DNA of 64,000 nt from Candidatus Aminicenantes bacterium (GCA_011772475.1 WVZK01000044.1:14727-78726); one strand, 5' to 3'; numbered from the stretch's first letter, positions 19,143 to 52,166 are shown. Notes: generated by a model from the sequence alone, not told the origin. Numbers and translations are program-made.

Positions 19143-19154
19143 AGAGAGATATAT

Positions 19155-20456: not shown

Positions 20457-20468
20457 GAGATCAAAGTT

Positions 20469-33079: not shown

Positions 33080-33697
33080 CTACAGAGCTTGAGAAAGAAT
33101 CCGAGTTGCTTGTTCAGGATTTTCGTGACAACAAACAGCGGATATCACAGCGATTCCGTGTGCACCTGCCTGCATCACCTCTGGTGCATTCTCTGCGTTT
33201 ATTCCACCAATGGCAACAATCGGCAACGGAATCGACTCCACAGCTTGAGTCAGAAGGTCAACACCAGAGACAGGGCCTGCATCTAATTTGGATGTCGTGT
33301 GATAAACGGGGCCAAAGCCAATGTAGTCTGCTCCTTCTGCAAGGCATTTATGGGCTTCCTCAAGCGTTCCAGCAGAACCACCAATGATCAAGTCTTTACC
33401 AAGCAATTCTCGCCCAAGGGGAATAGGAAAATCATCCTGTCCCAGGTGGACTCCATCCGCCTCGGCTGCAATCGCAACATCCACACGATCGTTTACGATA
33501 AATGTCACCTCAGCAGCCACACACATTTGTCTCAACTGTCGAGCAATCTCGATCATCTCACGTGTGGACCCAGTCTTCTGACGGAATTGGATGGTATCTG
33601 CGCCTCCCGCAATTGCCAACCTGGCGATGTCTTGGTGTGAGAATCGGGACTGCAATATCGTATCGGTGAGTACATGTAATTTTCCGATTTTTTTCAT
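33080..33697 (-). CDS. thiE: thiamine-phosphate synthase
   Basis: 205 aa. LHVLTD, IQFRQK, FIVNDRVDVAIAAEADGVHLGQDD, YIGFGPVYHTTSK and VAIGGI motifs. Confidence 0.92.
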   Translation of the reverse strand: MKKIGKLHVLTDTILQSRFSHQDIARLAIAGGADTIQFRQKTGSTREMIEIARQLRQMCVAAEVTFIVNDRVDVAIAAEADGVHLGQDDFPIPLGRELLGKDLIIGGSAGTLEEAHKCLAEGADYIGFGPVYHTTSKLDAGPVSGVDLLTQAVESIPLPIVAIGGINAENAPEVMQAGAHGIAVISAVCCHENPEQATRILSQAL

Positions 33698-33939
33698 TAT
33701 GGTTTCCTTAGGCAGCTACCATGATACCGGATGACAGCCAATTATTGATTTATGAGCACTCATTACGATAATTCAGAAGCCGATGTGGTGGATGTGCTGG
33801 ATTATTTCCCTAGCGCAATGATTAAAGTTAGCAATCACATCGATGTGGCTCATGTCAGGGCACGAGTCTCGGCCATAAGGGAATAGAACTTGTTCTTTTT
33901 CCAGTTTGCCTTCATTTTTTTCTTTGATTCCGATTAAAA

Positions 33940-33968
33940 TTTATAGCATAGGAGAAATACGGTGTCAA
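33940..33968 (-). promoter_or_regulatory. sigma-70-type promoter of thiE-thiL-thiM, giving a ~235-nt leader
   Basis: On the minus strand: TTGACA (33968-33963), a 17-nt spacer, then TATAAA (33945-33940). Confidence 0.55.
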
Positions 33969-34220
33969 AACTTGTGGAGTTATGAGAAAGAAATAGTCTC
34001 GAAGCCATAGAAGGTTGGGTAGTGTTCAACAGTAGGCATGCTTGCCGGGTTCGTACTAAAATCCCCTTTATGATAGTCTATCAAGATCCCTTTTGGCCTG
34101 CTTTTTTCAAGAGACCAAAAAAAACTTAGGATTTTGATCAGTTTGAAATGGATTTATACAGAAAAGAAGTTTGGTACTTGATATATTAAATTCAGAATAC
34201 GAATTATTTAAATTCTCAGC

Positions 34221-34745
34221 TTATTCTGTTTCTGGAACAGGGTGTTTTATTTTCTCCCAAGCTGCATCAAAATCAAAACTTTTCTCATGGGCATTCTCAT
34301 GACAGGACAAGCAATGCTTTTTTATAGCGTCCGGCGATTCATAGGCGACCATTCCATTCGCCACAGACTCTTCTCTGCTTTTCATAATGTTTAGTTTTTT
34401 ATAAGCGCTCCCTGGGCCGTGACAGACTTCACAGGTGACTCCTTCCTCTTTAAAGTCAGCTGCTTTATCAGAAAGAGGAGCATGACAGCTAAGGCATTTG
34501 GGGCTTTCTACCGGATTTTCTACTCCTGCTTCTTGGGCCTTGGCAGACGCATCTGGAGAGCTTAAAGCCGCGAAAGATTTGGAATGTTTGCTCTCTTCCC
34601 AGATAGGAAATTGTTTTCCTCGTTTTTCACTCTTATGGCAGGTTTTACACTTTGCGGCCCCAACATACGTGAAATCCTGACCAAAAAGACTGATGATGAA
34701 TACAAAGGCAATGAGAACAATTGCGATAAATAGGACTTTTTTCAT
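34221..34745 (-). CDS. periplasmic tetraheme cytochrome c (c554-family-like)
   Basis: 174 aa with a signal peptide. Motifs are CKTCH, CLSCH, CEVCH, CLSCH. The RBS AAGGAGG lies just upstream. Confidence 0.8.
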   Translation of the reverse strand: MKKVLFIAIVLIAFVFIISLFGQDFTYVGAAKCKTCHKSEKRGKQFPIWEESKHSKSFAALSSPDASAKAQEAGVENPVESPKCLSCHAPLSDKAADFKEEGVTCEVCHGPGSAYKKLNIMKSREESVANGMVAYESPDAIKKHCLSCHENAHEKSFDFDAAWEKIKHPVPETE

Positions 34746-34791
34746 CCATTCCTCCTTGCAGTAATAAACCTTATTCGCATCTGCATTTATA

Positions 34792-34806
34792 GCAAAATAT
34801 GTGCCA
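34792..34806 (-). promoter_or_regulatory. sigma-54 (-24/-12) promoter of the tetraheme gene
   Basis: The minus strand reads TGGCAC-ATATT-TTGCT, an exact match to the TGGCAC-N5-TTGCW consensus, about 45 nt upstream of ATG 34745. Confidence 0.7.
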
Positions 34807-35034
34807 AAATAAAAGAGTTATATTTAGTTGTTGTAAAGATGGGAATCAAAGAACCTAAGAAAATTTTTAGAGAGAAATGGAGAAATTTGGCTAAAAGACT
34901 GGATATGATTCAATAATTATTCATCTACTTTCTGTCAAATAATAAAAAAAGAAAACTTAGATAAAAATTAATGGGAATTCTTATTTCTCGGCAAAGTATG
35001 ATAAATCAAAATCGATAAAAACTTGATAAAAATT

Positions 35035-35048
35035 GGGTGATATGACCC
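35035..35048. promoter_or_regulatory. candidate enhancer (UAS) palindrome for the NtrC-type activator
   Basis: GGGTGATATGACCC matches the perfect palindrome GGGTGATTTCACCC at 52745-52758 at 12 of 14 positions. It lies about 122 bp upstream of the -24 element at 35162 and about 237 bp upstream of the one at 34806. Confidence 0.45.
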
Positions 35049-35161
35049 AGCATTGGGGAAAATCCCCCTAAAGATAGAACCAGTACTACTTTCATTTAAT
35101 TTACTGTTATCTAACTTTATTATTTTCTATGAGATAGTAATCTATATATTTTTAAGACACT

Positions 35162-35176
35162 TGGCACAAAAAATGC
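35162..35176 (+). promoter_or_regulatory. sigma-54 (-24/-12) promoter of the CbcL-like gene
   Basis: TGGCAC-AAAAA-ATGC, with GG-N10-GC spacing correct. It is nearly identical to the promoter at 52640-52654 and lies about 65 nt upstream of the start. Confidence 0.65.
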
Positions 35177-35238
35177 CATCTAAATCATGGAGAAATATAT
35201 GAATTAGATCTCAAGATGATACGAAAACTTAAAGTTGT

Positions 35239-37302
35239 TTGAGAATGAGGATTTTTTATAAGCTGATTTTAACTTCATTTCTTTCGTTAGTGTTGATGAT
35301 CACATTAACGCAGGGCCAAACTCCAGAGGAGTCTTCTTGCTTAGATTGTCACGATGATGTTCGGGTTACCTCTTCTGCCCACAAAGATTTGGATTGTATT
35401 GAATGTCATTCCAATATTAAGAAAATACCTCATAAGGAAGGACTTCTGAAGGCACTCACTGGAAAAAGACTCTGCGTCCAATGTCATGAGGAAACTGTTT
35501 CCAATCTCAATACCAGTGTTCATGAAAAATCCTCCTGCGGGGCTTGTCACAGAAAAGCACACGCAATTCCGAAACCATCTGAAAGGCCTTGTACTTCCTG
35601 CCATAGGTCTGAAAGCCAAGACTTCCTAGAGAGTGTCCATGGGGAAACTCTGGAATGTGTTACTTGTCATAAAGACTCTCACAAGATCACACCTTCTTCC
35701 AACTTCGATTCTCCAGTATCTCCACTGAAACAGATTGAGACCTGCCGAGAGTGTCATGATTCGCCTCCTCAACTCATTGAAGGTTTTTTGGAAAGTGTCC
35801 ATGGCCGCGGATTGGTCCTCTCTGGATTAACCATTGCTCCCACCTGCGCGCACTGCCATGGAGGACATGGGATCTTTCCACACACCGACGCACGCTCGAC
35901 CGTTTCTTATGAGAAGGTTCCTAAAACCTGCGGTTCCTGCCATCGTTACATCGTCGATAGATGGGTGGAGAGAAGCGCTCATGGACAAGGATGGAACAAG
36001 GGCAAAGAAGTTCCGGTCTGCATTACCTGTCATACCTCTCACAGTATTGAGGAACCTCGCATCGGAATCGCTCGTCTGAAGTTCCCTGAAACCTGCGGTG
36101 GTTGCCATGGCGAGAGTTATTCAAGTTATCGGGACAGCTTCCATGGGCAAGCTACAGACCTTGGCTTCATTACTGGAGCTACCTGCTCTGACTGTCATAC
36201 GCCGCATGAGAACCTGCCCAAGAGTGAATCAGGGTCCTCCATCTATCCTTCCAATCTTGAAAAAACGTGCGGAAGGTGTCACGGAGAAGTCACTGCTGCT
36301 TTCGCCACCTTTAATCCTCATATGAATCCCCGCAACCCCGAACAAAACCGCAATGTTTACTATGTCTGGCTCTTCATGAGGGGACTCATCATATTCATCT
36401 TTGGATTCTTTAGCATTCACTCTGTCTTATGGTTTCAGCGCTCATTGGTGGGATTGATCCGGAAAGAGCTCAAGACTATCCGACGGGAAGGAGATGTCTA
36501 CTTCCTGAGGTTTACTCCTGTGCATCAATGGATACACGTTACTATTATTGCGACTTTTCTGATCTTGGCTGCCAGTGGACTTCCTTTGAAGTATCATTTT
36601 ACAGGATGGGCGAATATGCTTTCGCTCTTTCTTGGTGGAATCTCCGCTGCTCGACTTTTCCATCGTTTTGCAGCCATTCTGACCTTTGGCTATGCTCTCT
36701 TCTATGTGGGATATCTCTTGTATCATATTCTGATCAAAAGAGAGTGGGGTATCCTTTCTGGGTGGCGCTCTATGGTACCGCGGAAGAAAGACTTTTTGGA
36801 CCTTTTTCACAATATCCGTTGGTTCTTTTATCTCGGTCAACAGCCCAAACTGGACCGGTGGACTTACTGGGAGAAATTTGACTATTTTGCTGTTTTCTGG
36901 GGAATCCCTATCATCGGAATCTCGGGACTGATGCTCTGGTTTCCCAAGTTTTTTAGCCAATTCCTTCCTGGTTGGGTGCTGAACGCAGCCTATGTGGTCC
37001 ACAGCGATGAGGCGACGTTGGCGGTGGGGTTTATATTTCTATTTCATTTCTTCCACAACCATCTCCGTTCCGAAAATTTCCCGATTGATCCTGTGATCTT
37101 TACAGGAAGGCTTCCGCTGGAACGATTCAAAGAAGAGCGTCCAGTAGAATATGAACGACTGGTCAAGAATGGCGAGCTGGATAAACGTCTTGTTGGCCCT
37201 CCATCCAACTGTCACCGGGTGGCCGCCTATGTTTTTGGTTTCATTACCTTCGCTATCGGGATCATTCTTATTGTCGCTATTCTCTGGACGGGATTAGTCT
37301 AA
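35239..37302 (+). CDS. inner-membrane fusion of a 13-heme periplasmic cytochrome c domain and a FdnI/HydC-type b-cytochrome membrane domain (CbcL-like)
   Basis: 687 aa (TTG 35239; alternative ATG 35245) with a signal peptide. There are 13 CXXCH motifs: CLDCH, CIECH, CVQCH, CGACH, CTSCH, CVTCH, CRECH, CAHCH, CGSCH, CITCH, CGGCH, CSDCH, CGRCH. About 5 TM helices follow, with conserved His ([42 protein letters not shown]). Confidence 0.8.
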
Positions 37303-37440
37303 ACGCGTCAACCTATACTTTTTCCTTAATTTTTCAAGTTGTTATTTTACAGAACTGTCTTCATTTTCACTGGAAGTGTAAAAGTAAGTATAGATCCTCC
37401 TATTCCTCATTTTATTAGAATGCTGAAATCTAAGAATGGT

Positions 37441-38706
37441 TTAAGTGGAGGTCTTTCTATCAATCTGCTTGATTTTAAGAAAAAGGGCTATGGCCAGAAG
37501 AAAGATGAATAGAGTGGCAATAATTAGTCCTGTTTTTCTGAATCTAGCTTCTCTTAAAGCATTTTCTCCAGCTTCTGTGACCTCAACTACGATTTTTTCC
37601 CCTTCTTCTATTTTCTCTTCAATTTCCACCAGAGAAAAACTATGGGTTAAATTTCGCACGAATATCAGTGCGGTGTTTGCTTCTGTTAACCTGAACTTGG
37701 GTTCGCTAACCTCGACTCCCTGCCTGTCTGCTCGCTCGAGGAGATTTTCGGCATGCCGAATTTTTTCGATGAACTCGTCAAGTTTCTCCTTAATGCGGGA
37801 AGCTATCTGGTAGGGCTCAGAATCAGGCTCATGACACTGGATGCAAACAGCCCTTTCCCCTGTTCCGAGCATTTCATCTGAAGGGGGAAGAATCTTATGA
37901 TTTCCATGACAGGCTTCGCACTCGGATATTCCCATCTCATCATAAGCTTTTTTGTGAGGACTTTGGGAGAAGAGTTCCCCAGCACTGGGATGGCATTGAT
38001 GACAGACATAAGCGATGGATGTAACTTCAGGTGGAGAAGCGCCATGATTGCCGTGACAGTCATTGCAGACAGGAGCAGACAAATCTTTTTTTTCGAAAAG
38101 GGCGTGAGCGTGGACACTCTCTTTGTATTCCTCCCACTGATTGGTGGGTATTTTGTAGCCTTTCATGTACTCTTTATCAGAGTGGCAGCGGCTGCATGTT
38201 TGAGGGATGTTCCAGGGAAAAGTCCAAGATTTGGGGTGGGTGGCAGCCTGGATGCCATGAGTTCCATGGCAATCCGTGCAGACCGCAACCCTGGTATCCT
38301 TTTTTTTAAAAAGCTGACCGTGCTCGCTTGTCCAATAGATAGCGAGTTGGTCAACTCTGAGACTGGGATTATAATGTCTCATATAGCTGGAGTCAGAATG
38401 GCAGGAAGCGCAGAAATCAGGGATTTGCGATCTTTTGGGGATTCCTTTAAAAGATTCATCCTTGGCTAAATCCATATCTTCTTCAGAAGCATTTCCTCCA
38501 TGGCAGTCCACACAACTCAACCCGAATTGTTGATGGATATCTAATTGAAAGGTTTCAACAGGTGCCAGAAGTTCATCTTCTAGTTCTTGGTGACACTCGA
38601 TGCAGGAATTTCTTTGGGCAAAGAGAGCATGGTGGGAAATGAATATAGCCAGGATCATAGGAAAGGAAAAGAATATAATTTTTCTCATTCCCGATGTTTT
38701 TTTCAT
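37441..38706 (-). CDS. nonaheme cytochrome c with a C-terminal membrane anchor
   Basis: 421 aa with a signal peptide. Motifs are CIECH, CVDCH, CASCH, CTDCH, CSRCH, CNDCH, CHQCH, CEACH, CIQCH. C-terminal TM helix GLIIATLFIFLLAIALFL. The start is 3 nt after the cyt b stop. Confidence 0.8.
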   Translation of the reverse strand: MKKTSGMRKIIFFSFPMILAIFISHHALFAQRNSCIECHQELEDELLAPVETFQLDIHQQFGLSCVDCHGGNASEEDMDLAKDESFKGIPKRSQIPDFCASCHSDSSYMRHYNPSLRVDQLAIYWTSEHGQLFKKKDTRVAVCTDCHGTHGIQAATHPKSWTFPWNIPQTCSRCHSDKEYMKGYKIPTNQWEEYKESVHAHALFEKKDLSAPVCNDCHGNHGASPPEVTSIAYVCHQCHPSAGELFSQSPHKKAYDEMGISECEACHGNHKILPPSDEMLGTGERAVCIQCHEPDSEPYQIASRIKEKLDEFIEKIRHAENLLERADRQGVEVSEPKFRLTEANTALIFVRNLTHSFSLVEIEEKIEEGEKIVVEVTEAGENALREARFRKTGLIIATLFIFLLAIALFLKIKQIDRKTST

Positions 38707-38709
38707 CTC

Positions 38710-39789
38710 TTATAATCCCGGGAGAAGATAGGTCAAAGCAGTCATGACTACAATGTAAAGGAAGACAATCCAACCTATTGTAGAAAAAACCGGGCTCTTC
38801 CTTTCCTTGGCTGCATTACGATCCAAAAGGGGAACCAGCATCCAGAAAAATCCTCCTATCATGAAACCAAATATAGCCAGAATCTCTCCTTCTAAGGTAA
38901 AAATATGGGCAGGTATGATTTTCAGAGTCGTGAACATGAAAGTAAAATACCATTCAGGTTTTATTCCGAGGGGTGTTGGAGCAAAAGGATCAGCCTTTTG
39001 ACCGACTTCCCAAGGGAAGAAAACACATAAAACACCGATGAGAGCCAGGATGAGCATCCAGCCTAAAGAGTCCTTTAGGATGAAATTTGGGAAAAAGGGA
39101 ACCTCACTTACTTTCTTTTTGCCGAGTCCTATGGGGGTACTCATTCCAAGAATCTGGACTAAGAGCACATGGATTCCAAGGACTATTATTGTCAACAGAG
39201 GAAGAATAGCTATATGGAGCCAGAAAAAGCGCGAAATAGTGGCTCCGGAAACCTCAGTCCCTCCAAGGATAAATGACTTAATCTGACTGCCAATTAAAGG
39301 CAGAGTTCCTGCAAGATCAGTTGCCACTCGTGTGGCAAAAAAGGAAAGCTCGTTCCAAGGGAGAAGATATCCGCTGAAACCAAAAAGAAGGAAAATCAGA
39401 AGAAGGAAAAAACCGGTGATCCAGGTGAGTTCCCGCGGGGATCTGTAAGCTTTGAGAAAAAAGGAGCTGAACATATGAATGAAAATTGCTGCAATAAGAA
39501 TATTCGCGGACCAGCTATGGACAGAGCGCATGAGCCAGCCAAATTTGACTTGGCTCATGATGTATTGAATGCTTTCGTGGGCGGAATCTACAGACGGGGT
39601 GTAGTAAAGGAGGAGCAGGATCCCGGTGAGGACTTGTATAACAAAAAGAAAAAGACAAATGCCCCCAAAATAATACCAGAAGGAATACCTATGTTCAGGA
39701 ACTTTCTTTTTTTTAGCGAATAGAATGAGGCTGGAGAGCTTAAAACGGGAATCTATATAAGAATAAATATTTTGGAGCGCTTTTTTCAT
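38710..39789 (-). CDS. cytochrome b (fused b6 + subunit-IV-like)
   Basis: The probable start is ATG 39789 (MKKALQNIYSYIDSRF...), 1 nt after the Rieske stop; the listed ORF extends to 39834. Signatures are SVHSWSANILIAAIFIHMFSSFF and FSGYLLPWNELSFFATRV. Confidence 0.88.
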   Translation of the reverse strand: MKKALQNIYSYIDSRFKLSSLILFAKKKKVPEHRYSFWYYFGGICLFLFVIQVLTGILLLLYYTPSVDSAHESIQYIMSQVKFGWLMRSVHSWSANILIAAIFIHMFSSFFLKAYRSPRELTWITGFFLLLIFLLFGFSGYLLPWNELSFFATRVATDLAGTLPLIGSQIKSFILGGTEVSGATISRFFWLHIAILPLLTIIVLGIHVLLVQILGMSTPIGLGKKKVSEVPFFPNFILKDSLGWMLILALIGVLCVFFPWEVGQKADPFAPTPLGIKPEWYFTFMFTTLKIIPAHIFTLEGEILAIFGFMIGGFFWMLVPLLDRNAAKERKSPVFSTIGWIVFLYIVVMTALTYLLPGL

Positions 39790-39790
39790 C

Positions 39791-40216
39791 TTAGGCTTTT
39801 TTGGAAACGATGATATCATCTCCTGAAATTTCAACGTTGTAGGATTCTAAAGGAGCAGGGGGAGGGCCAGAGACAACATTTCCGCTTAAATCGAATCTCC
39901 CGTTGTGACAGGGGCAAAGAATCGTGCCTGTATCGCTCTCATAGATGATAGTACAGGTGAGGTGAGTGCAGATAGCAGAGAAAGCCCTTAACTCGCCATC
40001 AGGAGTGTTTATGAGAATGCCGGGAGAGGTTCCGAATTTAAAGATTTTAGACATATTGGGGGCAAGTTCACCTAGCTTGGCAGCGGTAATTTTTTTTATG
40101 ACAGCCTCGGTTTGCTTGGTCGGCAAGATAAAGCTAATAATTGGGTAGAGAAAAGCAATAATTGTACCTACTAGACTCCCTCCTAAAAAGTAGTTGATGA
40201 AATTTCTTCTTTTCAT
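39791..40216 (-). CDS. Rieske [2Fe-2S] protein
   Basis: 141 aa with an N-terminal anchor (MKRRNFINYFLGGSLVGTIIAF). Rieske boxes CTHLTC and CPCHNG. Confidence 0.9.
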   Translation of the reverse strand: MKRRNFINYFLGGSLVGTIIAFLYPIISFILPTKQTEAVIKKITAAKLGELAPNMSKIFKFGTSPGILINTPDGELRAFSAICTHLTCTIIYESDTGTILCPCHNGRFDLSGNVVSGPPPAPLESYNVEISGDDIIVSKKA

Positions 40217-40217
40217 T

Positions 40218-42209
40218 CTACATTGGTTTACCCAAAGATTCTAATTCTTTTTGAAGATTTGTCAATATCTCTTCTGTAGATGTATAGTTATGAATTCCAG
40301 AACTCCCATCGAGTTCAATGTTACGAATGGTCTGTTCAATATTTAAAAGTTGCGCTTTTTCTCCCTCAGATAAGCTGAGTTTTTTCTTTTCTCTTACAAT
40401 AACCTTAGTAGAATCTATGAGATTTTTTATGGAATCTTGCCATTCAGAGAAAATTTCTCTGTAATCTTCATCATGGCAGTCAAGACATTTATTTTTGTCT
40501 GAAAGAAAAATCTGATTCTGAGGGCCAAGATGGCAGTCGATACATTCTGCTTCCGCTTCGAACATTATATCCTTTGCAATGTCATGGCCATTTAATTGAC
40601 CTCCTTGATAGAAGGTTTTTTGTAATTGATGGCAAACAGTACAGTCCTTCTTAGTGTCCTTGTGGTGACAAACAGCGCAACCATGCTTAGTGGCGATGAA
40701 TTCCCCATGTTTTCTGACATTAGAATGGCAGACATTGCACTGTATTTTCTGTTCGATCAAGTGCTTTTGATGAGGAAAGTCTAGTCCGAAAATCTGCATA
40801 TTTATTTCTTCAATCCCGGCGTGGCAATTGTAACACTGGATAGGAATTTCTTTGGATACTGCTAAAAATGCTTCTGGTTTATATGAAGAGCCTATGATCC
40901 CAAGAGCCTCCACGACACTATTATAGGAAGCGGAAAGGAGTTCCTGAGAGTATTCAACATTATGAACACTCTTTCCTCGGTCGACTATGTCGATGTTAAA
41001 GGCAGCTTCCTCAAGCGTTTTCTGAGCTTTTTCTTTCTCTGTATTTTTAGATTGCTCGAGCTCCTGACTGGCTTTGTTATAGATGGTCCTGAGTTTACTC
41101 AATTTTTTATCTGTAGAGATTTCCCAATCCTTCATGATTCTCGCAAAGCCTCTTCCATGACAGGACTCGCAGGCTTGGGCCTTTGAGGTGAAGGTCTCAC
41201 TTTTTATAATTTTCCCACCTGTTTCTTCGTGAAAAATATGGCAGCCTTTACAGCTCAATCCCTTCTCCAGCATGATATTAGGCACTGGGTGGGAAATGCC
41301 CTTACCTCCCTCTCCGATGAAGAGAATCTTTTGAGCTTTGTGATAGTCGGTATGGCATGTCTGGCAATCGGCGATGGTCTCAATTTCTTTGATGATCTTA
41401 TGTTGAATATCCATGTGACATTGATTACATTCGATTTTATGAGAAAAAATATGCACAAAATGCATCTGATCAGTATCAACATATTTATTGAGTCGGTCTA
41501 TTTCCCAGTGGCATTTATAGCAGTTTTCTCGAGGCACCACACCGTCACCTAAGATGGTATGGCTGTGGCATTTGTTACATTCAAAGCCATTATCAAAAAC
41601 AAGGGAATGGTTGAATTTTGACGTCTTTTCCGAAATCAAATCTTCTCGATGATGGCAGTGGTAACATTCGCTTATCTGAGGATAATGGTCACTTTTTTTG
41701 AAATGACAAATAAAACAGGTGCTTTCTGTAACGGTGATATGTTCTCCTTGGACAATTTGGGAATGACAACTTGTACACCGGAGTTGTTTGCCTCTTTTTA
41801 GGTCTGTAAAGTGGATTTTATGGTCGAAAGCGACTCTTTTGAACTTCACTTTGCCTTCCAGAAGCCTCTTCTTGTGACATCCCTCCCGAAGACAGCTTTC
41901 ATCCGGAATTTCAGCCCAAGGCTTTGATTTCAGGTAGAGCTTGGTCCAGTAGCGACCGACTTGAAGAATCCCTTCGATTTTAGCTCGGATTTTTGGTCTA
42001 ATTCCTGGAGGATAATGACAGGCGTTACACTCGATGTGGCTGTGTGAAGAGGTCTTCCAGCTTTGGTAAAAGGGTTTCATATAATGACAGGAATTACAAA
42101 AATAGGAGTGAGAAGTGTACTCGACTGAACCCAGAGTTAGAATGAGGACAAATCCTATAATTGAGAGAAAGATTATTCTTTTCTTCTTATTAATCTTTTT
42201 TTTCTTCAT
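40218..42209 (-). CDS. membrane-anchored multiheme cytochrome c with 17 CXXCH plus one CX4CH; NapC/NirT-like N-terminus
   Basis: 663 aa. TM helix IIFLSIIGFVLILTLG is followed by CNSCH...CNACH, the NapC/NirT-type start. The remaining motifs are CTSCH, CFICH, CYHCH, CNKCH, CYKCH, CNQCH, CQTCH, CKGCH, CESCH, CYNCH, CNVCH, CAVCH, CTVCH, CIDCH, CLDCH. CLREGCH is encoded at 41894-41874. Confidence 0.8.
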   Translation of the reverse strand: MKKKKINKKKRIIFLSIIGFVLILTLGSVEYTSHSYFCNSCHYMKPFYQSWKTSSHSHIECNACHYPPGIRPKIRAKIEGILQVGRYWTKLYLKSKPWAEIPDESCLREGCHKKRLLEGKVKFKRVAFDHKIHFTDLKRGKQLRCTSCHSQIVQGEHITVTESTCFICHFKKSDHYPQISECYHCHHREDLISEKTSKFNHSLVFDNGFECNKCHSHTILGDGVVPRENCYKCHWEIDRLNKYVDTDQMHFVHIFSHKIECNQCHMDIQHKIIKEIETIADCQTCHTDYHKAQKILFIGEGGKGISHPVPNIMLEKGLSCKGCHIFHEETGGKIIKSETFTSKAQACESCHGRGFARIMKDWEISTDKKLSKLRTIYNKASQELEQSKNTEKEKAQKTLEEAAFNIDIVDRGKSVHNVEYSQELLSASYNSVVEALGIIGSSYKPEAFLAVSKEIPIQCYNCHAGIEEINMQIFGLDFPHQKHLIEQKIQCNVCHSNVRKHGEFIATKHGCAVCHHKDTKKDCTVCHQLQKTFYQGGQLNGHDIAKDIMFEAEAECIDCHLGPQNQIFLSDKNKCLDCHDEDYREIFSEWQDSIKNLIDSTKVIVREKKKLSLSEGEKAQLLNIEQTIRNIELDGSSGIHNYTSTEEILTNLQKELESLGKPM

Positions 42210-42382
42210 TTACTAATTAGATAAGATTTATAGAGAGCGCATAAAGCGTCGTCAAGCCAAAGCTTAAATTATGCAGATACTGCTCTCAGATCAAAGAAGT
42301 ATCAGAGAATTTTTTAATCTATTAAGTACTATTATAAAGCAAGTGATGCATAATTTCTATAATTTTTATTAATTTTATAATT

Positions 42383-42411
42383 TTGACAATTTCTATACTT
42401 TTAATTATAAT
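42383..42411 (+). promoter_or_regulatory. consensus sigma-70 promoter of the octaheme-NrfC-NrfD operon
   Basis: TTGACA (42383-42388), a 17-nt spacer, then TATAAT (42406-42411). Confidence 0.65.
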
Positions 42412-42429
42412 TCTGAAAACATTATTAAA

Positions 42430-43209
42430 ATGAAAGATATTTCCTTCCTCGCGAAGTGGGCAAAAAAATTTTGGAAAAAAGTCCCTGACCAGGTAGTACG
42501 TCTTTCCATACCAATATTGATATTAATCATTGGCTTCATTGTCATGAGAAATCTTCTTGTTCCTTCTGACTTCGGCAAGTATGGACATTTCCGAGCTGCT
42601 GCAATTGACGAATTAGTATCACAGGAAATACAATACAGCGAGCATGAGATGTGTTTTGAGTGTCATGATGATGTCGTAAAAGCCAAGAACATGTCCTATC
42701 ACAGAGGTGTGGAGTGCGAGGTGTGCCATGGTCCCGCAGCAGCCCACATTGAAGACCCAGAAGGCAATCAACTTCCAGCCCCAAGAGAGAGAGGCTACTG
42801 TCCACTCTGCCATGAGTATCTTCCATCAAGACCTACTGGCTTTCCTCAGATTGTTTCAGAGTCACATAACCCATTTAGAGCTTGCGTCTCCTGTCATGAT
42901 GCTCATGACCCGAAACCGCCTACTGTGCCGAAGGAATGTGAGGCTTGTCATGCTGAGATTGCTCGGACCAAGGCTCTTTCTCATCATGTTTACATTTCGT
43001 GTATCAGATGTCACAAAACCCCTAAAGAGCACAATATACGCCCGAGAGCTCATCGGCCTGAGAAACCAAGCACGCGGGAGTTTTGTGGGGAATGTCACGA
43101 TGAGAAGGCACCGAGTGCCAAAGGAGTCCCTAGGGTGAACATGGAGACTCACGGCGAAAGATATGTGTGTTGGCAGTGTCATTATCCTCACTTACCAGAG
43201 GCGCATTAA
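42430..43209 (+). CDS. membrane-anchored octaheme cytochrome c (c3-family-like)
   Basis: 259 aa. TM helix LSIPILILIIGFIVM. Motifs are CFECH, CEVCH, CPLCH, CVSCH, CEACH, CIRCH, CGECH, CWQCH. Confidence 0.78.
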   Translation: MKDISFLAKWAKKFWKKVPDQVVRLSIPILILIIGFIVMRNLLVPSDFGKYGHFRAAAIDELVSQEIQYSEHEMCFECHDDVVKAKNMSYHRGVECEVCHGPAAAHIEDPEGNQLPAPRERGYCPLCHEYLPSRPTGFPQIVSESHNPFRACVSCHDAHDPKPPTVPKECEACHAEIARTKALSHHVYISCIRCHKTPKEHNIRPRAHRPEKPSTREFCGECHDEKAPSAKGVPRVNMETHGERYVCWQCHYPHLPEAH

Positions 43210-43983
43210 ATGAAGGAAGCAAATATCGAAAGAAGAGATTTTTTGAAAAGACTTATCGTCTCAGTTCTTTCTTTTTCATCGCCCGGGCTACTTAAGGCCC
43301 AAGAAAAAAGTAAGGAAAGTACGTCACTTTATGAGAAAGGTTATGATCCAGAAGAACACCTTTGGGGGATGGGAATAAGGATAAATAGATGCATCGGGTG
43401 CGGACGGTGTGCTGATGCCTGCAAGAGAGAAAATGATGTACCAAGACTGCCCTTTTTTTTCCGTACCTGGGTAGAACGCTATATTATCCTTGAGGGAGAT
43501 GAAGTTGTTGTGGATAGCCCCACCGGGGGAGTGGATGGCTTCAAAACCCATGTCCAGGAGAAAAAATTAGTCAGAAGCTTTTTTGTGCCTAAATTATGTA
43601 ACCAGTGCGATAAGCCTCCGTGTGTCCAGGTTTGTCCTGTTGGTGCGACCTACAAGACTGAAGATGGAGTTACTCTTGTTGATTCAGAGTATTGTATAGG
43701 ATGTCGGTACTGCATTCAGGCCTGCCCCTACGGAGCTCGTTTTATTCATCCCAGGACCCATACGGCTGAAAAGTGCACTTTTTGTTATCACCGGATTGTA
43801 AAGGGCTTAATCCCCGCCTGTGTTAAAGTGTGTCCCACCCAGGCGAGGGTATTCGGAGATACAAAAGGAAGGGCTAGTCCTCTCGTTAGATTCATGCGCA
43901 TGAATAAGATACGAGTCCTTAAACCTTATCTCAACACAGAGCCCAAGGTCTTTTATGCCGGACTTGATATGGAAGTAAAATAA
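43210..43983 (+). CDS. Tat-exported four-cluster 4Fe-4S ferredoxin subunit (NrfC/HybA/PsrB-like)
   Basis: 257 aa. Twin-arginine signal ERRDFLKRLIVSVLSF. Cys groups are CIGCGRCADAC, CNQCDKPPCVQVC, CIGCRYCIQAC and CTFCYHR...CVKVC. The start abuts the previous stop. Confidence 0.88.
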   Translation: MKEANIERRDFLKRLIVSVLSFSSPGLLKAQEKSKESTSLYEKGYDPEEHLWGMGIRINRCIGCGRCADACKRENDVPRLPFFFRTWVERYIILEGDEVVVDSPTGGVDGFKTHVQEKKLVRSFFVPKLCNQCDKPPCVQVCPVGATYKTEDGVTLVDSEYCIGCRYCIQACPYGARFIHPRTHTAEKCTFCYHRIVKGLIPACVKVCPTQARVFGDTKGRASPLVRFMRMNKIRVLKPYLNTEPKVFYAGLDMEVK

Positions 43984-43985
43984 GA

Positions 43986-45179
43986 ATGGAAGAAATCGCT
44001 CACCAATTAGCACCAATCCTTGAACAGATAACCGGATATATCTATCCGAATGAGATCGAATTGCACTGGCGTATCCTCATCGTTGTCTACCCTTATATTA
44101 CGGGACTCGTTGCTGGTGCCTTCATCCTCGCTTCGCTGGTAAAAGTATTCAATGTTAGAGAGGTTCAGCCGACCTATCGTCTTTCTCTTCTTACAGCTCT
44201 TGCCTTTTTAATAGTGGCCCCTTTGCCGCTTTTGGCGCATATCGGACACCCTGAAAAATCCCTGGAGATATTCCTGACCCCAAATTTTAGCTCTGCCATG
44301 GCAATGTTTGGATTCATATACGCCTGGTACCTCATGGCAGTTTTATTGCTTGAAATATGGTTTGACTACAGAAGAGACCTCATCATCTGGGCTAAGAATG
44401 AGAAGGGATTGATGAAGTGGATACACAGGATATTCACCTTGTTTTCCACAGACACTTCAGAAAGAGCAGTGCGCTTTGATAAAAGATCAATAAAAGCCAT
44501 AACAATAGTTGGAATTCCTTCCGCCTTTCTACTGCATGGATATGTGGGATTTATCTTTGGTTCTGTGAAGGCCAATCCCTGGTGGTCAAGCGTGCTCATG
44601 CCAATTGTGTTTCTTTTTTCGGCGATTGTATCAGGAATTGCCCTGGTATTACTCATCTACATGGTAGTGACTCTGGTGCGAGGAAAAGAGATAAATATGG
44701 CCTGTCTGGATAAACTCGCAGGCTATTTGTTTTATACGATGATTATTGATTTCTCCCTCGAAGCTTTAGATTTCATTCACCGATTGTATGAGTCAGAGGA
44801 ATCCATAGAAATACTCTCCCAGCTGATCTCAGGAAGATTATTTGTGAGCCTTATCGTTATCCAGCTCCTTCTTGGAATGATATTGCCTCTAGCCGGGCTT
44901 TCTTCAGTCAAATTATTCCGGGTGCCAGCCGAATTAAGAAGGCATATCTACTTTGTCTCAGCTTTACTTGTTCAAGTTGGTATTTTTACGACTAGATGGA
45001 ATGTCGTTATTGGAGGACAATTGTTCTCTAAAAGCTTTAGAGGTCTTACGGCTTATAAGATGTCTCTGGGCGGGGTAGAGGGACTACTCGTATCTTTGGG
45101 TTTTCTTATCCTTCCTTTCATAGTTCTGTATATTCTCGTTAAAATTTTCCCCCCTTGGCAAGAAGCCAAACAGCCCTGA
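43986..45179 (+). CDS. NrfD/PsrC-family integral membrane quinone-interacting subunit
   Basis: 397 aa, about 8-9 TM helices. HWRILIVVYPYITGLVAGAFILASL is the typical NrfD-family first helix. Confidence 0.82.
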   Translation: MEEIAHQLAPILEQITGYIYPNEIELHWRILIVVYPYITGLVAGAFILASLVKVFNVREVQPTYRLSLLTALAFLIVAPLPLLAHIGHPEKSLEIFLTPNFSSAMAMFGFIYAWYLMAVLLLEIWFDYRRDLIIWAKNEKGLMKWIHRIFTLFSTDTSERAVRFDKRSIKAITIVGIPSAFLLHGYVGFIFGSVKANPWWSSVLMPIVFLFSAIVSGIALVLLIYMVVTLVRGKEINMACLDKLAGYLFYTMIIDFSLEALDFIHRLYESEESIEILSQLISGRLFVSLIVIQLLLGMILPLAGLSSVKLFRVPAELRRHIYFVSALLVQVGIFTTRWNVVIGGQLFSKSFRGLTAYKMSLGGVEGLLVSLGFLILPFIVLYILVKIFPPWQEAKQP

Positions 45180-45302: not shown

Positions 45303-46121
45303 TTAGGCATAGCTGTGCAGGCCAGCCAGAAGATAATTCACGCCGAAATAGGTGAAGAGAGCAGCTAAGAAGCCAAGGACGGCAATATAGGCAGATCTGC
45401 GTCCTTTCCAGCCCATTACGATCCGGGTATGGAGGTAGAGAGCAAAGACAAACCAGGTTATCAGACTCCAAACTTCTTTGGGGTCCCAGCTCCAGTAGCT
45501 TCCCCAAGCGTAATAAGCCCATATCATGCCAAAAACGAGGCCCCCTAGAGTAAAGAGTGGAAAGCCGATGGCGATACATCTGTAGCTGATAGAATCGAGT
45601 TTTTCTGACGATATTCCCGTTTTCTTGGCCTTGCCTTTTTTTTCTTTTGAATCAGCCACTAAATACATGATGCTGGTGACAAAAGCCAAGGCAAAGAAAG
45701 CTTCGCCGAGGAGTGTGACCGAGACATGGAGCCAGAGCCAATAACTCTGGAGGGCAGGAACCAGGGGGGTTGCCTCTTTTGGCATCAACGGAGAAGAAGC
45801 TAAAGCCATGATGGCTATAACGACCAGCATAAAAAGGGCTCCTGCTTTTCGAATCTTGAATTTCCACTCGATAATGACATAGGCGAGAATAGCACTCCAT
45901 GCAAGGAAGGAAAGAGATTCATACATATTGGTGAAAGGTGCATGTCCGCTTTCCACAGTTCTCATAATAAGGGCAGCAGTATGGAGAAGCAGCCCGATGA
46001 ACGCTATGCTAAAGCCTGTTTTGGCCAGATTTTCTTTTTTTGAAAAGAAGTAAGAGAAGTAGAAAAACGCTGCTAAGAAATAGAATATGAAGGTTACGAG
46101 AAATAGGGTTGATTCGCTCAT
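45303..46121 (-). CDS. ccsA: System II cytochrome c biogenesis heme-handling protein CcsA/ResC
   Basis: 272 aa and polytopic. WWD (tryptophan-rich) motif WGSYWSWDPKEVWSLITW and conserved His residues. Confidence 0.9.
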   Translation of the reverse strand: MSESTLFLVTFIFYFLAAFFYFSYFFSKKENLAKTGFSIAFIGLLLHTAALIMRTVESGHAPFTNMYESLSFLAWSAILAYVIIEWKFKIRKAGALFMLVVIAIMALASSPLMPKEATPLVPALQSYWLWLHVSVTLLGEAFFALAFVTSIMYLVADSKEKKGKAKKTGISSEKLDSISYRCIAIGFPLFTLGGLVFGMIWAYYAWGSYWSWDPKEVWSLITWFVFALYLHTRIVMGWKGRRSAYIAVLGFLAALFTYFGVNYLLAGLHSYA

Positions 46122-51263: not shown

Positions 51264-52166
51264 CTATCTCATGAATCTTCCGGCGCCTGATAACGACGGA
51301 TTGTCGCTCCCGTGAATCTGGGAATGACAGTGAGTGCACCTGGTAAAGAAGCTGACGTTCCATGTTTGAAGACTCAGAGCGGGATGGCGTCGATCTTCAT
51401 GGCTAGTGTGGCACTGCATGCAGAGGAATGGTTCAGTCTGACGCTGGAGATGGTTGGCGATGCTTCCGTGCGAGTCGTGGCAAATAGCGCAGCTTTCAAC
51501 AACAGGAGCGTGCTCAAAAGTGAAGGGTCCCTGTTTTTCAGCATGACAGCTGAGACAGAGCTCGTTAAGAGTTTCAGCTTTGATGTTTCTTTCTCCTCCC
51601 CCGTGAGAATCATGGCAGGAAGAGCAGTTCATTTTTTTCTCGCGAATGGGGTGATGCGAGGGAAAATTTATTTGAGCTCTCTTGTCAGCGTGGCACTTGA
51701 AGCAGAGGTCAGGATCGTTCTTGGCTAATTGATTCTTGGCAGCGGTGTGAGAGCGATGACAGCTCGTGCAGGAGACACCGCTTATGTCATGGGAACTTCC
51801 AGGCCAGTTCATCTGCATTCCGCTTCGGTGACACTTCAGGCAAATCTCCCCAGCTTCGGTAGGGGAGAGTTCCTTCAGGCGGATAATCTTTTCCGGGTCT
51901 TCCTCTTCCACGTGCAGGCTTCCTGGACCATGGCAAGCTTCGCAGCCAGCGATTTTCCCCTTGAGTTCAAAATCAGCCAGTCTTCCGTGGATTGTTTTCT
52001 TGAAGGCTTCTCCGACTTCCTCATGACATTCCATACAGGTCTCTGAACCAACATATTCTCCTTCGGAAGCCGGCTCTACAGCGCAAAGAGAGGAATACAG
52101 GAAGAAAATACCAGTAAGAACAAAAGCGCAGGTGATGAGTCCAATCAGTAAACTGCTTTTTTTCAT
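51264..52166 (-). CDS. periplasmic decaheme cytochrome c, MtrA/DmsE/PioA/MtoA family-like
   Basis: The probable start is ATG 52166 (MKKSSLLIGLITCAF...) after AAGGAG; the listed ORF extends to 52244. There are 10 CXXCH motifs: CMECH, CEACH, CLKCH, CTSCH, CFKCH, CSSCH, CLSCH, CAICH, CMQCH, CTHCH. About 300 aa. The C-terminal CTHCHSQIHGSDNPS is typical of the family. Confidence 0.8.
   Translation of the reverse strand: MKKSSLLIGLITCAFVLTGIFFLYSSLCAVEPASEGEYVGSETCMECHEEVGEAFKKTIHGRLADFELKGKIAGCEACHGPGSLHVEEEDPEKIIRLKELSPTEAGEICLKCHRSGMQMNWPGSSHDISGVSCTSCHRSHTAAKNQLAKNDPDLCFKCHADKRAQINFPSHHPIREKKMNCSSCHDSHGGGERNIKAETLNELCLSCHAEKQGPFTFEHAPVVESCAICHDSHGSIANHLQRQTEPFLCMQCHTSHEDRRHPALSLQTWNVSFFTRCTHCHSQIHGSDNPSLSGAGRFMR

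Follow-up and report, generated by a model that had tools for sequence, protein, structure and literature searches.

Two divergently oriented cytochrome genes lie at the centre of this locus, one encoding a small tetrahaem c-type cytochrome and the other a protein in which a multihaem c domain is fused to a b-type membrane domain, and the spacer between them measures 493 bp (34746-35238). We describe them within the window, by which we mean the whole 64-kb stretch of DNA from an Aminicenantes MAG analysed here; the features are collected in Table 1. The fusion ORF can be read from a TTG (687 aa) or from an ATG two codons on (685 aa); the ATG is the start used in the NCBI product (NIM58013.1) and in every homologue. 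The fusion gene is monocistronic and lies about 12-15 kb from a second unit of interest, an operon encoding a receiver, a decahaem cytochrome and an outer-membrane barrel.

Table 1. Positions of genes, DNA elements and protein domains in the window (fusion-protein residues in 685-aa numbering).
Feature	Position	Strand	Description
Cyc2-like fused cytochrome-porin	21890-23116		
Tetrahaem c-type cytochrome gene	34221-34745	-	174 aa, 4 CXXCH (ORF reading)
-24/-12 element TGGCACATATTTTGC, 'class B'	34792-34806	-	Faces tetrahaem gene
Palindromes TGGGTGATATGACCCA and GGGGAAAATCCCCC	35034-35068		Centres 20 bp apart; between divergent promoters
Conserved A/T-rich block TCTAACTTTATTATTTTCTATGAGATAG	35110-35137	+	Between palindromes and promoter
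-24/-12 element TGGCACAAAAAATGC, 'class A'	35162-35176	+	About 69 nt upstream of ATG 35245
Fusion cytochrome gene	35245/35239-37302	+	685/687 aa, 13 CXXCH, six TM helices
Fusion protein, signal peptide	residues 1-24		Hydrophobic N-terminus ending TQG/QT
Fusion protein, periplasmic domain	residues ~25-365		13 CXXCH, within residues 32-346
Fusion protein, membrane domain	residues ~366-685		Six TM helices, predicted FdnI-type dihaem-b core
NapC/NirT-like protein	40218-42209		663 aa, 17 haems; separate from fusion protein
HAO-family octahaem	47491-48786	-	PF13447 E 8e-31; just downstream of barrel gene, same strand
Outer-membrane beta-barrel, GSU2204-like	49140-51254	-	704 aa, one CXXCH
Decahaem cytochrome, DmsE/MtrA family, GSU2203 (OmcK) subfamily	51264-52244	-	10 CXXCH
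Stand-alone response-regulator receiver	52262-52618	-	118 aa; PF00072 E 2e-22; first gene after third promoter
Third -24/-12 element TGGCACAAAAATTGC, class A	52640-52654	-	Faces receiver gene
Second palindrome pair ATGGGAAATATAGCCCAT and AGGGTGAAATCACCCA	52744-52780	-	90 and 110 nt upstream of third promoter
NtrC-family sigma-54 activator	52843-54234	-	Receiver, AAA+ sigma-54 interaction domain with GAFTDA, Fis-type HTH
Sensor histidine kinase	54237-55718	-	TM, ~150-aa periplasmic domain, TM, HAMP, HisKA, HATPase
Beta-oxidation genes	57962-63200		

The fusion cytochrome and its family

Hydropathy and an AF2 model place the six transmembrane helices of the fusion protein at residues 369-405, 425-450, 466-497, 541-565, 577-603 and 655-684, a layout that parallels that of Geobacter CbcL (GSU0274) in Table S2 of the published family survey (PMC6295460). 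Compared with the PDB by Foldseek, the model has FdnI (1kqf_C) as its best match, at E 3.4e-5 and a target TM-score of 0.78, with Hyd-1 cytochrome b as second match, and a profile of the C-terminal domain has FdnI as its sole PDB match (E 0.0022). The predicted b-haem ligands are His431, His473, His586 and His601, invariant in 38 family sequences; the first three align with His18, His57 and His155 of FdnI, and His601 lies one residue off FdnI His169. PF01292 is detected in 31 of the 38 family members, and in family-model searches the window protein by itself reaches only TIGR01583 (E 0.0018). The modelled fold and the profile comparison confirm the membrane part as a HydC/FdnI-related dihaem b cytochrome and, together with the ORF reading, bear out an earlier note on this DNA, which had described a 687-aa ORF with 13 CXXCH and an FdnI/HydC-type b half. 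Like FdnI (1KQF chain C) and HyaC-HydC, the protein has a predicted four-helix dihaem-b fold with four His ligands; unlike them it has no molybdo- or NiFe-enzyme partner and carries two extra helices, and a covalent multihaem c domain takes the place of the FeS subunit as periplasmic electron entry or exit. The ImcH family, also named for comparison in that note, is rejected: here haems come first and helices last, the opposite domain order, and a Pfam search of the fusion protein gives no NapC/NirT match. An ImcH protein, as we take it, starts with three helices, has a NapC/NirT-like region and ends with about seven CXXCH.

In the c domain, 15 non-motif His are available for 13 haems, and the haem spacing is 19-26-21-18-22-29-34-28-30-25-30-28. 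The terminal 28-30-25-30-28 is also found in members of the published family table (PMC6295460), and the total of 13 arises through a two-haem N-terminal extension. Proteins with 13 haems are in the minority, at 16 of the 120 best matches, and the 2018 CbcL/MtrH/MtoC family table has no entry of this kind (PMC6295460). The same study reports 15 phyla and anything from 3 to 23 haems for this family (PMC6295460). The earlier note had correctly given nine haems for CbcL (PMC6295460), and the larger haem number on which it remarked is already on record for this architecture. Homologues of the window protein number more than 3,389, and more than 557 species genomes across many phyla carry one; relatives in Dadabacteria, Calditrichota and Opitutaceae (36-47% identical) have length and haem-spacing fingerprints equal to the Table S2 entries of those taxa (PMC6295460). 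Judged from its sequence, the window protein belongs with CbcL, MtrH and MtoC in one family, and its architecture is not new.

Which branch of the family it belongs to is a separate matter. CbcL, too, joins a multihaem c domain and a HydC/FdnI-type dihaem b domain in a single polypeptide and has its six helices arranged alike, and to this extent the earlier description of the protein as CbcL-like stands. By its haem-spacing fingerprint, however, it groups with the MtoC/MtrH/Dadabacteria branch and not with Geobacter CbcL. GSU0274 has 619 aa and 9 haems spaced 23-25-23-24-29-28-43-28, against 685 aa and 13 haems here, and identity with CbcL in the strict sense (9 haems, 609-625 aa, Desulfuromonadia spacing) is rejected on length, haem count and spacing. 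CbcL and the MtoC/MtrH group are reported to be only about 35% identical (PMC6295460). Both MtoC/MtrH (Daro_1404 of Dechloromonas aromatica, Galf_2006 of Gallionella capsiferriformans, Rfer_4073 of Rhodoferax ferrireducens) and the 11-haem Dadabacteria/Omnitrophica members resemble the window protein in domain order, with multihaem c at the N-terminus and then six helices with conserved His, in a terminal spacing of …25-30-28 and in a length of 650-700 aa. MtoC/MtrH-type members are often encoded near MtrA/MtoA decahaems and are proposed to act in the inner membrane as the quinone/quinol oxidoreductase that serves an outer-membrane conduit, a function that for MtoC/MtrH is itself a proposal. 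The window protein differs from them in its 13 CXXCH, its Aminicenantes host, the divergent tetrahaem gene, the predicted sigma-54 promoters and a gene position outside the decahaem operon.

Sigma-54 elements, palindromes and a haem-motif kinase

Two back-to-back -24/-12 elements stand in the spacer exactly as the earlier note had read them, and the nearly identical promoter that it had assigned to the decahaem operon is also found, as the third element of Table 1. The 3' end of TGGCACATATTTTGC lies 46 nt upstream of the tetrahaem ATG with a GGAGG Shine-Dalgarno in between, and the third element is 21 nt from the receiver-gene ATG, with a leader of only about 10 nt. TGGCAC-N5-WTGC occurs three times in the 64 kb where 0.13 matches are expected (an enrichment of about 20-fold), a count reached in 1 of 100 shuffles. 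With GG and GC fixed and at most one mismatch to TGGCAC-N5-TTGC allowed, the window holds four matches, one in coding DNA and three intergenic, each oriented to the next gene; intergenic DNA makes up 13% of the window. The three intergenic elements have 0-1 mismatch, with GG and GC 10 nt apart, and no sigma-70-like site above background is found in the 493-bp spacer.

The elements are kept in relatives that are 76-79% identical at the protein level, amid otherwise diverged spacers. On the minus strand the tetrahaem element reads TGGCACGTATTTTGC in related locus L003, TGGCACATATTTTGC in L007 and TGGCCTATATTTTGC in L002, and the class B type TGGCATATATTTTGC precedes an mh259-like gene in L002 and L003. 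The plus-strand element is identical in L002 and L003, despite a leader there of about 250 nt, of which about 190 nt and the Shine-Dalgarno are missing in the window. It might be argued that these strings are chance matches, or operators of another regulator, and that a housekeeping sigma factor transcribes the genes: the plus-strand element in the window sits within a palindrome, TGGCA-N7-TGCCA, and L007, a close relative in which the tetrahaem promoter and the fusion gene are kept, lacks both the plus-strand element and the upstream palindromes described below. But the TGGCA-N7-TGCCA palindrome is lost in L002, in L003 and at the third promoter, all of which keep the GG/GC spacing, and the enrichment, the confinement of matches to the correct intergenic positions, a fixed spacing to tandem palindromes in six cassettes, the adjacent sigma-54 activator gene and the lack of a sigma-70 match better than background all make this explanation very improbable. 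The evidence supports the two elements as real, non-random and phylogenetically conserved, that is, as predicted promoters. Of 80 family loci only 4 show a good -24/-12 match in the DNA just before the fusion gene, and sigma-54 control would therefore be clade-specific. A Myxococcota MAG (L053) has a canonical element, TGGCATGTATTTTGC, just upstream of a 19-haem fusion gene that adjoins kinase and activator genes. No rpoN was seen within the 64-kb window.

The regularity extends further upstream. At six fusion-type promoters, TGGC lies 90-93 and 110-113 nt downstream of the ends of two 14-bp palindromes, and such tandem pairs occur 10 times in 1.43 Mb of loci and 0 times in shuffles. In an alignment the A/T-rich block is kept across six orthologous and paralogous cassettes and may be a DNA-bending or IHF-type site. 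The palindromes of the spacer are a candidate upstream activator sequence for an NtrC-type activator, common to both divergent promoters. In L004, where the fusion protein is 58% identical, kinase, activator and fusion genes form one operon with this palindrome pair in front of it, and the activator encoded there directly upstream of the fusion gene is 46% identical to that of the window (PF00158 E 9e-67, PF00072, PF02954).

The kinase next to the activator carries one CXXCH (Cys150) in its periplasmic domain, conserved in homologues that adjoin fusion genes in five loci (L004, L053, L057, L059, L077), which makes the domain a candidate haem-c sensor. Searches give it no significant match (PF21563 at E 0.0027 falls below threshold, PF11845 does not match, and 3b42 reaches only E 0.73), its Cache/PDC-like signals are weak and its structure model is of low confidence; such profile and fold hints as there are point weakly toward Cache/PDC sensors and the Mcp40H-20 sensor family. 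In its single CXXCH, its ~150-aa periplasmic domain and the two flanking helices it resembles the PAS-like GSU0582/GSU0935 and the sCache_haem DUF3365/Tll0287 sensors; unlike these, it lacks a significant match to either family and its output is a kinase, which would feed a sigma-54 activator.

Partners and the direction of electron flow

The tetrahaem protein (NIM58012.1, named 'cytochrome C554' by NCBI) starts with a signal or anchor sequence and, beyond its 4 CXXCH, contains exactly 4 other His. It scores 50.3 bits against PF13435 Cytochrome_C554 (cut-off 20.8), and its structural-database matches, to Nitrosomonas c554 (1bvb, E 8.8e-4) and OcwA (6i5b), are weak; orthology with Nitrosomonas CycA is rejected (NF043010, 36.8 bits, cut-off 400). 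In 12 of the related loci a homologue is encoded no more than 10 kb from a fusion gene; Bacteroidota and Calditrichota are among the phyla with homologues near fusion genes, and the tetrahaem is a candidate periplasmic partner of the fusion protein.

The third promoter precedes an operon that had been called MtrAB-like. The cytochrome half of that name holds: the decahaem belongs to the DmsE/MtrA family (NF041028, the GSU2203 family, 355 bits, cut-off 325; TIGR03508, 253 bits, cut-off 192), and NCBI names the product DmsE family decahaem. The first gene, however, is a stand-alone receiver (27% identical to the activator's receiver domain), and the barrel (PF13505 OMP_b-brl, E 8e-10; NF041027, 267.6 bits, below the cut-off of 350) has no Pfam match to the MtrB/PioB family of porins with 26-28 strands, PF11854 included, at E <= 0.01; what it does match are generic OMP barrel models and, below cut-off, the GSU2204 family of CXXCH-bearing proteins. 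With its own CXXCH, its GSU2204-like character and this lack of a match, identity with MtrB is rejected; the barrel may still work like MtrB. The mixture of Geobacter-type with Shewanella/Fe-oxidiser-type parts is a known combination, because mtoC/mtrH genes adjoin mtoAB/mtrAB in several published genomes (PMC6295460; PMC8805035).

We think it likely that the locus encodes a branch of a respiratory electron-transfer chain that can be induced. In the fusion protein a 13-haem c domain, exported by Sec, occupies the periplasm, and a single helix links it to the FdnI-type dihaem-b core; this core, of four helices, carries the predicted quinone/quinol site and is followed by the sixth helix. Through the protein, electrons would pass between the menaquinone pool and cytochromes of the periplasm. 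CbcL of Geobacter sulfurreducens is a quinol oxidase required when acceptors are of low potential, and in vitro its c domain passes electrons to the periplasmic cytochrome PpcA (PMC9129911); the c554-like tetrahaem would likewise be the likely first partner of the window protein. Most likely, the fusion protein would oxidise quinol and the electrons would go on to the decahaem/porin unit. A quinone site on the cytoplasmic side, as in FdnI, would make quinol oxidation non-conserving or dissipative, which counts against this reading.

Electrons might also run the other way, with the fusion protein reducing quinone with electrons from outside, taken up by the decahaem/porin or Cyc2-like porin-cytochrome and relayed by the tetrahaem, as proposed for MtoC of Fe(II) oxidisers. 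Fe(II) oxidisers and Fe(III) reducers alike have members of the family, whose sequences show no feature that separates the two (PMC6295460), haem spacing puts the window protein on the MtoC/MtrH side, the window encodes a Cyc2-like protein (cyc2 homologues are reported in Aminicenantes), and electrons in FdnI run inward to menaquinone. Yet the step from Fe(II) to quinone is uphill and the required energy input is not evident here, neither a terminal oxidase nor a nitrate reductase is found in the window, and the window has anaerobic-organotroph genes such as those for beta-oxidation; we consider reversed flow unlikely, if a serious contender. Where the electrons go is also debatable. As a CymA/NrfH-like quinol-oxidising hub, the fusion protein and tetrahaem would feed soluble periplasmic reductases, and the kinase would sense a small ligand such as NO. 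Candidates for such reductases are the octahaem (a weak hydrazine/hydroxylamine-dehydrogenase-like match), whose gene follows directly on the porin gene, and a reductase of nitrite, hydroxylamine or a sulfur compound. Haem-c Cache sensors fused to signalling modules act as NO sensors (PMC12889525), and about 64 of 80 family loci have no MtrA-like gene within 10 kb. But MtrA-like decahaems do recur within that distance in about 16 of the 80, many contigs being short; one of the three predicted promoters that share the cassette drives a decahaem and an outer-membrane barrel, the signature of a trans-outer-membrane conduit; and the kinase domain has no DUF3365/Tll0287 match. All told, a hub of this kind is improbable.

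Taking quinol oxidation toward the conduit as the preferred reading, a complete extracellular electron transfer route, as the earlier note had suggested, is plausible, but as one of several wirings. In addition to the Cyc2-like protein, the window carries two Rieske/cytochrome b clusters and two NrfD-type modules, four further candidates for a link to quinol, which could supply that periplasmic pool as well.

A recurring regulatory cassette

In regulatory terms, the NtrC-type activator would bind the palindromes and the adjacent kinase would phosphorylate it, so that expression would follow the periplasmic redox state or a haem ligand. In Geobacter cbcL is constitutively expressed, which differs from a fusion gene with a predicted sigma-54 promoter, and a regulatory parallel is found in CbcBA/BccR (GSU0593-0598, G. 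sulfurreducens). There the cbcBA operon requires the sigma-54 activator BccR, and an inner-membrane b/c cytochrome, a sigma-54 promoter and a receiver-AAA+-HTH activator occur together as they do here; the regulated operon includes an extra response-regulator gene and is induced as an alternative quinol oxidase. CbcBA, however, consists of two polypeptides (a dihaem b protein and a seven-haem c protein with a C-terminal anchor) where the window has a fusion, and the available part of the published account describes neither a cognate haem-bearing kinase nor a tandem palindrome cassette.

The cassette comprises two 14-bp palindromes, the A/T block and a -24/-12 element, and often a second sigma-54 promoter points in the opposite direction; the cassette is a well-defined regulatory unit, possibly not described before. 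We propose tentatively, giving it a little under an even chance, that this repeated ~150-nt cassette, the haem-motif kinase and the NtrC-type activator together form an undescribed regulon that recurs across phyla and senses periplasmic redox or a haem ligand. If so, CbcL/MtoC-type quinol oxidoreductases would be switched on together with their small periplasmic partners and with outer-membrane conduits, and the regulon would be a counterpart of the Geobacter BccR-CbcBA switch in which sensor and operator can be identified.

The fusion protein and its family

The C-terminal half of the fusion protein is a cytochrome b of the FdnI/HydC type, as the earlier note had read it. A single-sequence PDB search with this half returns nothing, and FdnI is reached only by profile and fold comparison: it is the only PDB match of the domain profile (E 0.0022), and the AF2 model (pLDDT 75.7) matches it with an E of 3.4e-5 and a target TM-score of 0.78, with E. 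coli Hyd-1 cytochrome b as the second match. PF01292 is found in 31 of 38 aligned family members, the invariant His431, His473 and His586 align with His18, His57 and His155 of FdnI (His601 falls one residue off His169), and the six TM helices comprise an FdnI-like core with one extra helix before it and one after.

Homologues number in the thousands (typically about 645 aa long and about 50% identical) and are carried by at least 557 GTDB species, spread over Acidobacteriota, Gammaproteobacteria, Myxococcota, Verrucomicrobiota, Planctomycetota, Bacteroidota, Calditrichota, Elusimicrobiota, Omnitrophota and Dadabacteria. Among the 120 best homologues, 97 have 11 CXXCH motifs, 16 have 13, four have 10 and three have nine; more distant fusion loci have 19. 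Just such a multihaem c plus membrane architecture defines the CbcL/MtrH/MtoC family of Zhong and Shi (PMC6295460), whose 138 members from 15 phyla measure 416-1034 aa with 3-23 CXXCH, conserved His and mostly six TM helices, and whose mtrH/mtoC genes adjoin mtrAB/mtoAB in several genomes. Table S2 of that survey lists GSU0274 (619 aa, nine haems) and MtoC/MtrH proteins of 655-673 aa. Our relatives from Dadabacteria, Calditrichota and Opitutaceae show the same length and haem-spacing fingerprints as its entries for those taxa, and they and MtoC/MtrH have the terminal spacing 28-30-25-30-28 in common with the window protein, whereas the haem spacing of Geobacter CbcL differs. Architecture and fingerprints therefore place the fusion protein in the published family, on the MtoC/MtrH side and with a two-haem N-terminal extension. 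An ImcH-like identity is rejected because the domain order is opposite and a NapC/NirT region is absent. The main points of the earlier note are right. A framing as new architecture and mixed route is already covered by the literature; the known family here gains a member from a new lineage, the Aminicenantes.

The fusion start in the homologues and in the NCBI model is the ATG at 35245, which gives 685 aa, and the gene is monocistronic, since the next gene (37441-38706) converges on it. In a window of 42% GC, the order thiL-thiE-tetrahaem, divergent fusion gene and convergent nine-haem/cytochrome b/Rieske/NapC-like operon is common to the window and three related contigs, L002, L003 and L007, whose fusion proteins are 76-79% identical to ours. 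L007 (CAYFVQ010000210.1) is labelled 'uncultured Eubacteriales bacterium' yet is syntenic with the Aminicenantes window, its fusion protein being 77% identical, and has probably been binned under the wrong label. The 523-bp gap (33698-34220) that separates thiE from the tetrahaem gene has no ORF of 60 aa or more, and an Rfam scan detects in it neither a TPP riboswitch nor any other family; the same scan has zero matches in the whole window, and therefore finds no riboswitch or known leader RNA.

Features of the window and of related loci (coordinates are those of the window unless a locus is named)
Feature	Coordinates	Strand	Remarks
Molybdopterin-FeS-NrfD cluster	9975-16709	+	
Second Rieske/cytochrome b set	18678-21689	+	
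Cyc2-like fused cytochrome-porin	21890-23116	+	408 aa, signal peptide, CXXCH at residue 35, porin beta-barrel
Tetrahaem cytochrome, NIM58012.1	34221-34745	-	174 aa, 4 CXXCH; annotated 'cytochrome C554'
Fusion protein, NIM58013.1	35239-37302	+	687 aa, 13 CXXCH; annotated 'hypothetical'
NapC-like/Rieske/cytochrome b/nine-haem operon	37441-42209	-	
Octahaem-cytochrome-FeS-NrfD operon	42430-45179		
System II cytochrome c maturation genes (ResB/CcsB)	45303-47470		Among cytochrome genes
Octahaem cytochrome, HAO/multi-haem family	47491-48786	-	PF13447 E 8e-31; weak hydrazine-dehydrogenase-like match
Receiver-only response regulator	52262-52618	-	Stand-alone domain; first gene of the sigma-54-driven decahaem/barrel operon (third promoter); 27% identical to activator receiver domain
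NtrC-type activator	52843-54234		Receiver domain, sigma-54 interaction domain with GAFTDA, Fis-type HTH; directly upstream of third cassette
HAMP histidine kinase	54237-55718	-	Adjoins activator gene
Second divergent sigma-54 pair with palindrome cassette	L002 7960-8480; L003 11190-11690	divergent	Between NapC-like and octahaem-cytochrome-FeS-NrfD operons

Promoter elements and the palindrome cassette

Both sigma-54 motifs that had been proposed in the 493-bp spacer between the tetrahaem and fusion genes read exactly as described. The 64 kb contain three instances of the pattern TGGCAC-N5-WTGC, where 0.13 would be expected; with GG/GC fixed and one mismatch to TGGCAC-N5-TTGC allowed, the window has four sites, three of them intergenic (intergenic sequence makes up 13% of the window), each upstream of, and facing, a cytochrome operon. 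No sigma-70-type site rises above background in the spacer, and a sigma-70 and terminator scan of 33600-37500 gives counts like those expected by chance. What it calls a 'terminator' at 35049-35034 is in fact the first palindrome of the cassette described below, and no gene reads into it.

The spacers of L002, L003 and L007 have diverged with large indels and the promoters are largely retained. L002 and L003 have the plus-strand element TTGGCACAAAAAATGC unchanged; from L007 it is missing, along with the palindromes. The minus-strand element is kept in L003 and L007 and changed to TGGCCTATATTTTGC in L002. A reading of the plus-strand element as a TGGCA-N7-TGCCA operator was rejected because that palindrome is not conserved. 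The distance of the element to the ATG is about 250 nt in L002 and L003 versus 69 nt in the window, where the fusion leader (35177-35244) is about 190 nt shorter than theirs (L002 600-849, L003 3733-3985) and lacks their GAGG-type Shine-Dalgarno sequence. The two long leaders have sequence blocks in common, and a small ORF considered within them has no conserved frame. At the third promoter, which serves the receiver-decahaem-barrel operon, the leader is only about 10 nt.

The palindromes TGGGTGATATGACCCA and GGGGAAAATCCCCC stand about 110 nt upstream of the plus-strand promoter, 20 bp from centre to centre, and a matching pair, ATGGGAAATATAGCCCAT and AGGGTGAAATCACCCA, precedes the third promoter (52640-52654). 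In all six measured promoters of the TTGGCAYAAArAWTGC type (window fusion and receiver-decahaem, and fusion and NapC-like in each of L002 and L003), the two palindromes stop 90-93 and 110-113 nt short of TGGC, on its upstream side. These six cassettes can be aligned over about 150 nt with 75% column identity; the aligned stretch takes in an A/T-rich block that separates the palindromes from the promoter. Promoters of the TGGCAYrTATTTTGC type (tetrahaem and mh259-like genes) lie 228-306 nt from the palindromes, on the opposite side. Tandem palindrome pairs occur 10 times in the 1.43 Mb of fetched loci and not once in shuffles; one stands in front of an Acidobacteriota cluster of monohaem cytochrome, fusion gene, decahaem and large ORF.

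In L002 and L003 the pair recurs between the NapC-like and mh259-FeS-NrfD-like operons, flanked by two divergent -24/-12 elements. The corresponding window spacer (42210-42429) is shorter and has no second cassette, having instead a perfect TTGACA-17-TATAAT before 42430; regulation at this spacer is therefore apparently being rewired between strains, among close relatives.

Sigma-54 promoters are not a family-wide trait: among the neighbourhoods of the 80 closest of the at least 557 relatives (80 that include none from Geobacter, Gallionella or Dechloromonas), a good match lies within 500 nt upstream of the fusion gene in only four. Such a promoter is clade-specific, with an independent case in Myxococcota.

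The adjacent activator and kinase

The activator and kinase genes stand beside the third cassette, and the GGGTGAWATCACCC pairs are candidate targets of the activator's HTH domain. In L004-L006, loci with a fusion protein 58% identical to ours, a kinase gene comes first, preceded at short distance by the same palindrome pair, and is followed by an activator gene and then by the fusion gene; this activator shares 46% identity with that of the window. A 19-haem fusion gene in the Myxococcota locus L053 comes after kinase and activator-like ORFs, and TGGCATGTATTTTGC, with GGAGG following it, lies between them. Promoter and palindrome conservation, the adjoining activator and kinase, and the loci L004-L006 and L053 together make it likely that sigma-54 control is exerted through this kinase-activator two-component system, which would activate the cassette promoters with binding, phosphotransfer and start sites as we infer them. 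As a separate observation, L004 also has a perfect TGGCACGGGCCTTGC at 19058-19072 (+), just upstream of a ComEA-like helix-hairpin-helix gene.

The periplasmic domain of the window kinase (product residues 33-180, ~150 aa) contains one CXXCH, the CYACH at residue 150, and the same motif is found in kinase homologues beside fusion genes at five loci from several phyla (L004, L053, L057, L059 and L077). The domain gives weak Cache/PDC-type family and fold signals, the model being of low confidence, and has no significant match to a known haem-sensor family. Assignment as a DUF3365/Tll0287 haem-Cache domain was rejected, there being no Pfam and no PDB sequence match, only the weak Cache/PDC fold matches of that model. 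For the receiver-only regulator, a role as phosphate sink or feedback element is conceivable; a response regulator is likewise part of the cbcBA operon of Geobacter.

Likely partners, branches and meaning

Quinol/quinone chemistry would take place at the FdnI-type site of the fusion protein, which would exchange electrons with the tetrahaem and onward with the decahaem/barrel unit. The c554 domain model matches the tetrahaem, whose further His number exactly four; in 12 examined loci, mostly of 19-haem variants from Bacteroidota and Calditrichota, a homologue of it is encoded within 10 kb of the fusion gene. Because CbcL reduces PpcA in vitro (PMC9129911), the tetrahaem is, by analogy, likely the first periplasmic partner. 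The operon that the earlier note called MtrAB-like is so only in part: its DmsE/MtrA-family decahaem falls in the GSU2203 (OmcK) subfamily above both curated cut-offs, and the function holds by analogy, but the 704-aa barrel, with one CXXCH, is GSU2204-like below cut-off and has no MtrB/PioB match. In about 16 of the 80 loci, an MtrA-like decahaem is encoded no more than 10 kb from the fusion gene. An octahaem cytochrome encoded between the barrel gene and ResB/CcsB, immediately downstream of the former and on its strand, could be a terminal reductase or a further part of the conduit.

The 64 kb hold 14 cytochrome genes with 94 CXXCH. The NapC-like operon specifies a NapC/NirT-like protein of 663 aa that has 17 CXXCH, a Rieske protein (39791-40216), a cytochrome b6/subunit-IV-like fusion (closest NCBIfam neighbours b6 and ExtP) and a nine-haem cytochrome of 421 aa anchored at its C-terminus; these products resemble a Rieske/cytochrome b complex connected to multihaem cytochromes. 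A long same-strand run (9975-21689, +) starts with a pentahaem c7-like cytochrome, after which come genes for a molybdopterin oxidoreductase, an FeS protein, NrfD and a multi-domain cytochrome c of 527 aa; further on are an FAD/FeS oxidoreductase, the second Rieske protein of the window, a cytochrome b and a cytochrome with five haems. The Cyc2-like product has a single CXXCH and a weak DHC-domain match. Cyc2-type cytochrome-porin fusions are linked to Fe(II) oxidation, and the FeGenie authors reported cyc2 homologues in Aminicenantes. Electrons may flow through the fusion protein either way: the CbcL/MtrH/MtoC family is present in both Fe(III) reducers and Fe(II) oxidisers (PMC6295460), and a Cyc2-like protein is also in the window.

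The NapC-like operon, the octahaem-cytochrome-FeS-NrfD operon, the molybdopterin-FeS-NrfD cluster and the second Rieske/cytochrome b set are other quinol-linked modules of the window, so the fusion protein is one branch among several. This set resembles the ImcH/CbcL/CbcBA branching of Geobacter, in which cbcL is constitutive and cbcBA is controlled by BccR, a sigma-54 activator. Aminicenantes are known mostly as fermenters. The family, for which a role as the point where extracellular electron transfer enters or leaves the inner membrane has already been proposed, gains a 13-haem subtype and this lineage; the main added value is a delimited, conserved sigma-54 cassette together with a candidate haem-based sensor kinase. 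The compact, sequence-defined set of operator pair, promoter, activator and haem-bearing kinase is open to direct heterologous testing and, if the reading is true, metagenomes could be searched for the palindrome motif as a predictor of co-regulated electron-transfer genes. The cassette and the 14 cytochrome genes suggest that, like Geobacter with its ImcH, CbcL and CbcBA, uncultured Aminicenantes tune a branched electron-transfer chain to redox conditions.
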